Positions 6,061 to 6,261 of a stretch of 13,417 nucleotides of DNA are shown piece after piece (the stretch's first letter is position 1; each line of letters begins with the position of its first letter). Made by a program: the position numbers and the translations under genes. A model generated the notes under the pieces. It saw only the letters and a program-made list of their open reading frames with translations. It did not search any database and was not told the DNA's origin. The DNA lies in IMG/VR virus record IMGVR_UViG_2526164690_000043, positions 1-13,417 of that record; one strand, written 5' to 3'. The DNA comes from a virus (taxonomy: Duplodnaviria > Heunggongvirae > Uroviricota > Caudoviricetes).

Positions 6061-6261
6061 AAGTGGGGAGTAAAAGTGGGGAGAGTGGGGAATTTAACAA
6101 AATTGAAACATAATTACCCACTTTCCCACCTGTATATACCCAAAAAAGTGGGGAGTAAAAAATATATTGAAAAACATCACGTTAGAATCACAAAAAGAAG
6201 AGGTGGGGAGACGGTGGGTAATTTCAAAAAGTGGGGAGCAAAAGTGGGGAGTAGTGGGGAA
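6061..6261. repeat. Iteron array: about nine copies of (A)AGTGGGGA(G/A) with an AT-rich spacer; putative replication origin
   Basis: Direct copies at 6061, 6074, 6084, 6146, 6201, 6211 (degenerate), 6229, 6242 and 6253; one inverted copy at 6117-6130 (CCCACTTTCCCACC); AT-rich stretch at 6156-6200. Sits directly after the replication ATPase gene. Confidence 0.8.

Follow-up and report, generated by a model that had tools for sequence, protein, structure and literature searches.

Gram-negative PICIs have been described as carrying their replication origins 3' of pri-rep, where two sets of iterons flank an AT-rich region (Fillol-Salom 2018, PMC6092414). EcCI042 is among the PICIs of that study, and EcCICFT073 is the only Gram-negative PICI for which origin activity has been demonstrated: its rep-ori fragment, cloned in pKO3-blue, supports plasmid maintenance, which is lost when ori is deleted, the initiator being of a different class (D5_N/SF3) from the one considered here (PMC6092414). 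The Reps of SaPIs are described as helicases that load themselves and bind the iterons through a C-terminal winged helix (PMC9371898); the mechanistic model worked out for SaPI Reps has also been proposed for Gram-negative PICIs (PMC6092414). Capsid-forming PICIs (cf-PICIs) have a terminase of their own, with which they package no DNA but their own (bioRxiv 10.1101/2022.09.08.507074). That such islands replicate after induction rests on EcCIEDL933, a related cf-PICI with another initiator, of the DUF927 type (bioRxiv 10.1101/2022.09.08.507074), and the cf-PICI papers make no mention of an origin or of iterons.

Here we describe a stretch of 13,417 nt (the window) in which the original prediction placed an iteron-type origin directly downstream of a replication ATPase gene. 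We interpret the interval 6060–6261 as the putative RepA-dependent vegetative replication origin of a cf-PICI, a reading to which, on comparative sequence grounds, we assign a probability of roughly 0.87.

Results

A cf-PICI at the roxA–phoQ site

The window is a capsid-forming PICI of E. coli at the roxA–phoQ site. It is 99.7% identical over its full length to islands lying between roxA (ycfD) and phoQ in E. coli O103, O111 and related strains, and the stretch 5900–6400 is 99.6% identical in some O157:H7 strains, which carry an island at the same site. This is the site of O-island 51 (PMC6092414) and is also used by EcCICFT073 and EcCIEDL933. From left to right, the genes encode a tyrosine integrase, an AlpA-like excisionase/regulator, small ORFs, a DUF4222 protein and the RepA helicase, followed by the repeats; then come two small ORFs, an SSB, a PerC-family regulator, an HK97-type capsid protein, a prohead protease, portal, head-closure and connector proteins, HNH, TerS and the start of TerL. 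The window stops within terL, and the right end of the island is seen only in L002, the closest complete genome. With an integrase, an AlpA-type regulator, a rep gene, unidirectional genes and neither lysis nor tail genes, the island belongs among the PICIs.

The packaging module is collinear with that of EcCIEDL933 and its packaging genes are near-identical, yet the replication module is of the EcCI042 type, not of the prototype EcCIEDL933 type. This replication module occurs in roughly 1,000 E. coli genomes. EcCI042 has a homologous intergenic region with GTGAGG repeats; EcCIEDL933 has a 710-aa DUF927 initiator followed by TAACCCGCA repeats, and EcCICFT073 a D5_N/DUF5906/Pox_D5 (SF3) Pri-Rep followed by GGTAGA repeats. 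Features in and around the interval, with window coordinates and strand, are as follows.

4662–6059, + strand: repA, 465-aa initiator-helicase (Pfam AAA_25, E 7.8e-43)
5871–6056, + strand: coding part of the predicted C-terminal winged-helix domain, about residues 404–465
5982–5984, + strand: codon (CAC) of His441, the proposed specificity residue, after the invariant Lys440 and at the N-terminal end of the third (recognition) helix, 442–451
6062–6092, + strand: left array of three direct iterons, 6062–6070 AGTGGGGAG, 6075–6083 AGTGGGGAG and 6084–6092 AGTGGGGAA (pattern search)
6114–6130, − strand: two overlapping inverted iterons, left arm of the dyad, AGTGGGTAA and GGTGGGAAA as reverse complements
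6131–6138, no strand: TGTATATA box at the dyad centre, with arms CCCACTTT (6117–6124) and AAAGTGGG (6145–6152)
6147–6155, + strand: central direct iteron AGTGGGGAG, right arm of the dyad
6156–6201, no strand: AT-rich spacer, candidate DNA-unwinding element (GC content and duplex stability)
6202–6261, + strand: right array of five direct iterons, 6202 GGTGGGGAG, 6213 GGTGGGTAA, 6230 AGTGGGGAG, 6243 AGTGGGGAG and 6253 AGTGGGGAA
6824–7234, + strand: SSB, the island's single-stranded-DNA-binding protein (Pfam SSB, E 6.5e-16)

The SSB holds the same position in EcCICFT073, EcCI042 and EcCIEDL933, and is likely a replication accessory rather than a part of the origin. Between the small post-origin ORF and the SSB gene lies a 101-aa ORF (6509–6814; PHROG 27268), which is present in the window and in the O103/O157 islands and absent from EcCI042, EcCICFT073 and EcCIEDL933.

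Compared with L002, the window shows about a dozen single-base indels (2639, 6191, 7861/7895, 9364/9397, 9944–9967, 10956/11067 and 11950). These split the prohead protease (ORFs 9440–9601 and 9568–9930), the portal (9932–11008, 358 rather than 403 aa) and the HNH region, and create a 300-aa ORF (1836–2738) without annotation in the references; the pattern points to draft-assembly errors or to a decaying packaging module. No iteron is affected by the indel at 6191, which falls in a run of A within the AT-rich spacer.

An iteron array fills the gap 3' of repA

The interval 6060–6261 is the entire gap between the stop codon of the 465-aa repA ORF (6057–6059) and the ATG of an 83-aa ORF (6261–6512), a length of 201 nt, and the RefSeq annotation of the closest complete genomes, which have near-identical islands, treats it as intergenic. 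With at most one mismatch, AGTGGGGAG occurs 10 times in the 13,417-nt window against 2.1 expected, a count reached by none of 200 shuffles. Eight of these ten copies lie on the + strand within 6062–6261 (at 6062, 6075, 6084, 6147, 6202, 6230, 6243 and 6253), and a ninth direct copy, GGTGGGTAA at 6213, retains the core only. Counted by their GTGGG core, the direct copies at these positions thus number nine, in agreement with the original prediction of about nine; where it had a single inverted copy, there are two, overlapping and degenerate (6114–6122, reverse complement AGTGGGTAA; 6122–6130, reverse complement GGTGGGAAA). The 200-nt stretch of the origin holds 11 GTGGG cores, whereas any other 200-nt stretch of the window holds at most 3. 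The repeat unit measures 9 bp with a spacing of 9–13 nt and has the consensus (A/G)GTGGGGA(G/A). The 45-nt left block (6058–6102) is 80% identical to the right block (6226–6270), 168 nt apart. With repeats starting at 6062, the array does directly follow the replication ATPase gene, as had been proposed.

Over 6075–6199 the GC content is down to 28–36%, reaching 28% at 6150–6199, and the AT-rich region between the arrays spans 6093–6201. A nearest-neighbour stability scan of the whole window places its weakest 12-nt and 20-nt duplexes at starts 6156 and 6155, directly 3' of the central iteron copy, which bears out the AT-rich segment predicted between the repeats. No DnaA box was found within 6060–6260, and no sigma-70-like promoter in 5800–6500; no terminator-like site lies within 6060–6261, the single one detected being outside the interval. 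An Rfam scan in and around the interval gave no family, only sub-threshold noise, and the interval had no match in a phage collection.

At the right edge, the last iteron (6253–6261) overlaps the ATG of the ORF 6261–6512, and the GGAG of the preceding iteron lies ~10 nt upstream of that ATG, at Shine–Dalgarno distance (window 6243–6263). RepA binding at 6243–6263 could also influence translation or transcription of the downstream genes. A lone exact AGTGGGGAG lies inside repA (5230–5238). We considered it as an extra iteron and rejected it: it falls on the codons for the conserved Q-W-G-G of the ATPase core, in which W191 and G193 are invariant among 16 aligned RepA proteins, and a coding coincidence is the simplest explanation.

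RepA and its predicted winged helix

RepA is built of an N-terminal domain of ~125 aa, a RepA/AAA_25 RecA-fold ATPase core (about residues 147–314) and a predicted C-terminal winged helix. It is annotated in RefSeq as 'helicase RepA family protein', matches RSF1010 RepA (PDB 1G8Y) weakly, and shares 94% identity with the Pri-Rep of EcCI042, a published non-capsid PICI. Its Walker A motif is intact (GASGSYKS) and the ATPase motifs are invariant in 49 homologues; Pfam finds no primase, D5 or SF3 domain in the window RepA.

The C-terminal domain is predicted to be a winged helix and is confidently modelled. Residues 400–465 have a pLDDT of 83–95 in the full-length AF2 model, and the domain modelled alone (AF2) reaches 93–97 with a helix-helix-helix-hairpin topology. 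Its top Foldseek matches are DtxR/IdeR, PcaR (IclR-type), LexA, Fur, histone H1 and the MCM WH domain, with a probability of 0.9–1.0 and a TM of about 0.6; the small size of the domain keeps the E-values at only ~0.07. Searched with Foldseek, the full-length RepA model gave nothing beyond weak RecA-fold matches, owing to its low quality outside the domains (pTM 0.46).

At this chromosomal site, two initiators of unrelated classes, the EcCICFT073 Pri-Rep (D5_N/SF3) and the EcCIEDL933 protein (DUF927), begin with a stretch 66–70% identical to residues 1–125 of the window RepA (window 4662–5036; L164:7242–7616; L167:24039–24413). The three classes have only these first ~125 residues in common, which match no Pfam family. 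As a shared adaptor, this N-terminal domain might serve as a docking site for the DUF4222 protein encoded upstream, for a primase or for a factor of the helper phage. We found no description, in the literature searched, of one site at which three initiator classes with an N-terminal domain in common alternate. Outside E. coli, the RepA relatives (L005, L041, L052 and others, from Xenorhabdus, Serratia, Pectobacterium and Morganella) are 680–730 aa long and, ahead of the same helicase and winged helix, carry a fused N-terminal Zn_Ribbon_Prim and Toprim_3 primase; in the E. coli RepA proteins the unrelated 125-aa domain takes the place of this zinc-ribbon/Toprim primase. The idea that the 125-aa domain is a remnant of the Toprim primase of the relatives was discarded, as BLASTP detects no similarity.

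The layout of the proposed origin is kept across Enterobacterales genera

We compared 160 loci with RepA relatives, 80 from species-representative genomes and 80 from IMG/VR, analysing 300–320 nt past the repA stop in each. A GTGxG-type repeat, in 6–14 copies, is the most frequent 8-mer of nearly every locus, and the density of GTGNG past the stop is five times that of the preceding rep coding sequence. The array lies directly 3' of the helicase gene in ~135 distinct loci, from E. coli, Xenorhabdus, Pantoea, Pectobacterium, Serratia, Morganella, Kosakonia and others. The order is also kept: the stop codon, one to three direct repeats, an inverted repeat, a (C/T)(A/T)TATA box, a direct repeat after an A-run, an AT-rich stretch of ~70–80 nt, three to five direct repeats and the next gene. 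The combination of inverted core, TATA and direct core is present in 120 of the 135 distinct origins, the two cores mostly lying 24 or 26 nt apart, and TATA sits at the dyad centre in 95 of those 120; the dyad is not recognisable in 15 of the 135. Across genera, the sequence changes concertedly in all copies while the layout stays. The suspicion that the repeats might lie inside a conserved coding sequence in homologues can be laid aside, with no frame across the interval open in more than 13 of 132 distinct versions. A TATA-centred iteron dyad as a conserved core was not found in the literature searched, and a full-text literature search for the iteron strings returned unrelated papers only.

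RepA residue 441 co-varies with the iteron core

Residue 441 of RepA predicts base x of the GTGxG core, and the two are concordant in all 157 loci with sites, as follows.

His441, core base G: 51 of 51 loci
Asn441, core base A: 69 of 69 loci with sites, two further Asn loci being without sites
Ser441, core base C: 8 of 8 loci
Lys441, core base G: 29 of 29 loci

C-terminal domains that differ at just 2–5 of 64 positions have different iterons (L114 versus L144, the window versus L113, and L146 versus L138). On a tree of 102 distinct C-terminal halves, built with residue 441 masked, parsimony gives 11 residue changes and 10 base changes, all of them concordant. This residue-441/base-4 correspondence across some ten switches was not found in the literature searched. 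The expectation that the iteron would define replicon specificity thus gained support, with the repeats co-varying with a single residue of the predicted RepA winged helix.

The comparison with EcCI042 bears on how such specificities may be exchanged. Nucleotide identity is 95–100% in repA up to 5865, drops to 72–83% in the winged-helix coding part and to 43–70% across the origin, and is back at 90–97% from 6286 downstream. Since the divergence is confined to the winged-helix part and the origin, these two appear to behave as one exchangeable specificity cassette.

In Pantoea dispersa S68, two contigs (L031 and L040) encode RepA proteins that are near-identical in their N-terminal and ATPase parts, with TKHFTRWL versus RKHFSRWL in the C-terminal part and iterons of GTGGGGAG versus GTGGGGGC, a natural domain-plus-origin swap in one host. 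Three IMG/VR loci (L126, L129 and L130; 300 nt past the repA stop) have chimeric origins, in which the left array, the dyad and the central copy are GTGAG, as for an Asn-type RepA, and the right array is a mix of GTGGG and GTGAG running on into H-type downstream sequence, with a recombination breakpoint inside the origin. Taken at face value, these chimaeras show that an N-type RepA can tolerate some GTGGG copies in the right array, and that not every copy would need to match. In the first 40 nt past the stop of another IMG/VR locus (L125, IMGVR_UViG_2541047774_000008), all between the left and right arrays is lost next to an intact H-type repA. Left with three iterons, no dyad and no AT-rich region, in what looks like a recombination between direct repeats, this is probably a replication-dead island. 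Incompatibility avoidance would predict that islands sharing a genome always have different specificities; this idea we set aside, as two or three islands of one type occur together in several genomes.

From the co-variation together with the structure model, we infer that residue 441 may contact base 4 directly. The winged-helix codons lie ~75–280 nt from the iterons, and linkage plus cassette recombination could produce much of the association without any contact. We would give about even odds to the fuller proposal that the winged helix and the origin form a compact swappable cassette, that residue 441 sets core base 4 (G for His or Lys, A for Asn, C for Ser) by a near one-residue, one-base rule, and that initiation nucleates at the TATA-centred dyad.

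Discussion

The interval compares closely with the published PICI and SaPI origins (SaPIbov1, SaPI1, EcCICFT073 and EcCI042). It occupies the gap immediately 3' of the initiator-helicase gene, with a left set (6062–6092) and a right set (6202–6261) of iterons around an AT-rich region, and has oppositely pointing iterons about the melting region (inverted 6114–6130 versus direct 6147–6155, across TGTATATA). As in those systems, the helicase initiator carries a predicted C-terminal winged helix that, judged by co-variation, appears matched to its own iterons, and DnaA boxes are absent. The likeness has limits: the SaPI Reps and the EcCICFT073 Pri-Rep are of AAA+/SF3 type (D5_N, Pox_D5), whereas the window RepA is a RecA-fold RepA/AAA_25 protein; the iterons are GTGGGG in the window versus GTGAGG in EcCI042, GGTAGA in EcCICFT073 and TAACCCGCA in EcCIEDL933; and the window island makes its own capsids. 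The iteron-type origin originally proposed is therefore well supported by a layout and position kept in ~135 distinct loci, by the co-variation with RepA and by the published PICI layout.

The match to PICI origins held up; the comparison with P4, suggested at the same time, proved loose. P4 is likewise a satellite replicon with a multifunctional helicase protein, alpha, whose C-terminal winged helix binds short repeated octamers, and the alpha primase recalls the N-terminal zinc-ribbon and Toprim of the RepA relatives in Xenorhabdus, Pectobacterium and Serratia. However, P4 needs two separated cis sites, ori and crr, whereas the window has a single cluster with no crr-like second site; the alpha helicase is SF3 rather than RepA/AAA_25, the window protein is without a primase domain, and the iteron sequences are unrelated. 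The iteron plasmids (pSC101, F, R6K, RK2 and pPS10; Rep_3) share direct repeats, a winged-helix initiator, an AT-rich unwinding element and iteron-defined specificity, but their iterons are 17–22 bp and regularly spaced, against 9 bp in the window, and their initiator is a small WH1–WH2 dimer/monomer without helicase that requires DnaA boxes and DnaB/DnaC loading, of which none was seen here. The origin, with its AAA_25 helicase, 9-bp unit and no DnaA box, lies outside the Rep_3 iteron-plasmid family and outside the P4 alpha/ori-crr system, though similar to both in working outline. RSF1010/IncQ RepA belongs to the same AAA_25 ATPase family; there, a separate RepC binds the iterons and RepA is helicase only, whereas the window helicase carries its own predicted origin-binding domain. 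SV40 large T antigen and papillomavirus E1 offer a functional analogy only, in inverted short elements, two head-to-head hexamers, an AT-rich tract and self-loading; they are unrelated SF3 proteins with their own origin-binding domains and other hosts, and there is no homology.

Other functions for the repeats deserve weighing. They could form an operator or regulatory array, acting on transcription from repA into the SSB, PerC and packaging genes or on repA itself by autoregulation. Iterons of plasmid origins often double as autoregulatory sites; moreover, all genes point rightward, so that transcription must cross the interval, and the last iteron sits on the start codon of the next ORF, with the preceding one supplying its GGAG. 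We nevertheless regard a purely regulatory array as improbable. It would lie downstream of repA rather than upstream, in a region (5800–6500) without a sigma-70-like promoter and with its sole terminator-like site outside the interval, and the dyad, the AT-rich layout and the least stable duplex all fit an origin. The homologous position and layout, furthermore, have been shown to be an origin in EcCICFT073 (PMC6092414) and in SaPIs (PMC9371898). A secondary regulatory role is possible and is compatible with an origin at this place.

A packaging site (cos or pac) for the island's small terminase, HNH and large terminase must also be entertained, as an island that packages only its own DNA has to hold a specific cis site somewhere. 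That the array is this site seems very improbable: the array follows RepA also in islands without a capsid/terminase module (EcCI042) and next to the primase-fused relatives of other genera, the repeat sequence tracks a RepA residue and not the packaging genes, and EcCIEDL933, with near-identical packaging genes, has another initiator and other repeats. Least credible of all is that the repeats are functionless, whether by chance, as slippage products or as unannotated coding sequence such as the ORF 6031–6264. Mechanically called ORFs do run across the interval, but no frame is open in more than about 10% of distinct homologues, none of the 200 shuffles reached the observed count, and the layout is kept across genera while all copies change together.

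We therefore return to the origin reading, for which a mechanism can be envisioned. As in related islands, a helper phage would induce the island, which would excise and express its rightward operon. RepA would then bind the 9-bp iterons through its C-terminal winged helix, His441 reading the fourth base of GTGGG as the co-variation and the structure model suggest. The opposed iterons (6114–6130 inverted, 6147–6155 direct) around TATATA would position helicase assemblies head-to-head, with the flanking direct arrays, three on the left and five on the right, adding cooperative binding. The duplex may open at the TATATA centre, in the adjacent 45-nt AT-rich stretch (6156–6201), or in both, and the helicase would self-load without DnaA, whose boxes are absent from the interval. 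The island SSB would cover the single strands, and priming would presumably be provided by a host or helper primase, because the window RepA is without the zinc-ribbon/Toprim primase of its relatives.

The accepted picture of PICI replication is unchanged by these findings. The origin is an ordinary and expected feature of such islands, and fits the layout already published for PICI origins (Fillol-Salom 2018, PMC6092414) as a well-supported further case. What is gained is the location of a cis-acting candidate origin for the cf-PICI of many enterohaemorrhagic E. coli (O103, O111 and some O157:H7), and a view of cf-PICIs at one chromosomal site as having interchangeable replication modules, with three initiator classes each with its own iterons. 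More modest gains are a defined rep-ori cassette for building or tracking satellites, a sequence-based sorting of RepA-type replicons into specificity groups, and a cheap, testable hypothesis on the evolution of origin specificity (H441N with an iteron G-to-A change). If direct readout by residue 441 is true, satellite specificity would be predictable from sequence and could be reprogrammed by a single substitution with matching iterons. Selection would in that case lie behind the repeated switches, for instance against cross-activation between co-resident satellites, or for escape from origin-directed phage nucleases such as those known to act against Vibrio PLEs.
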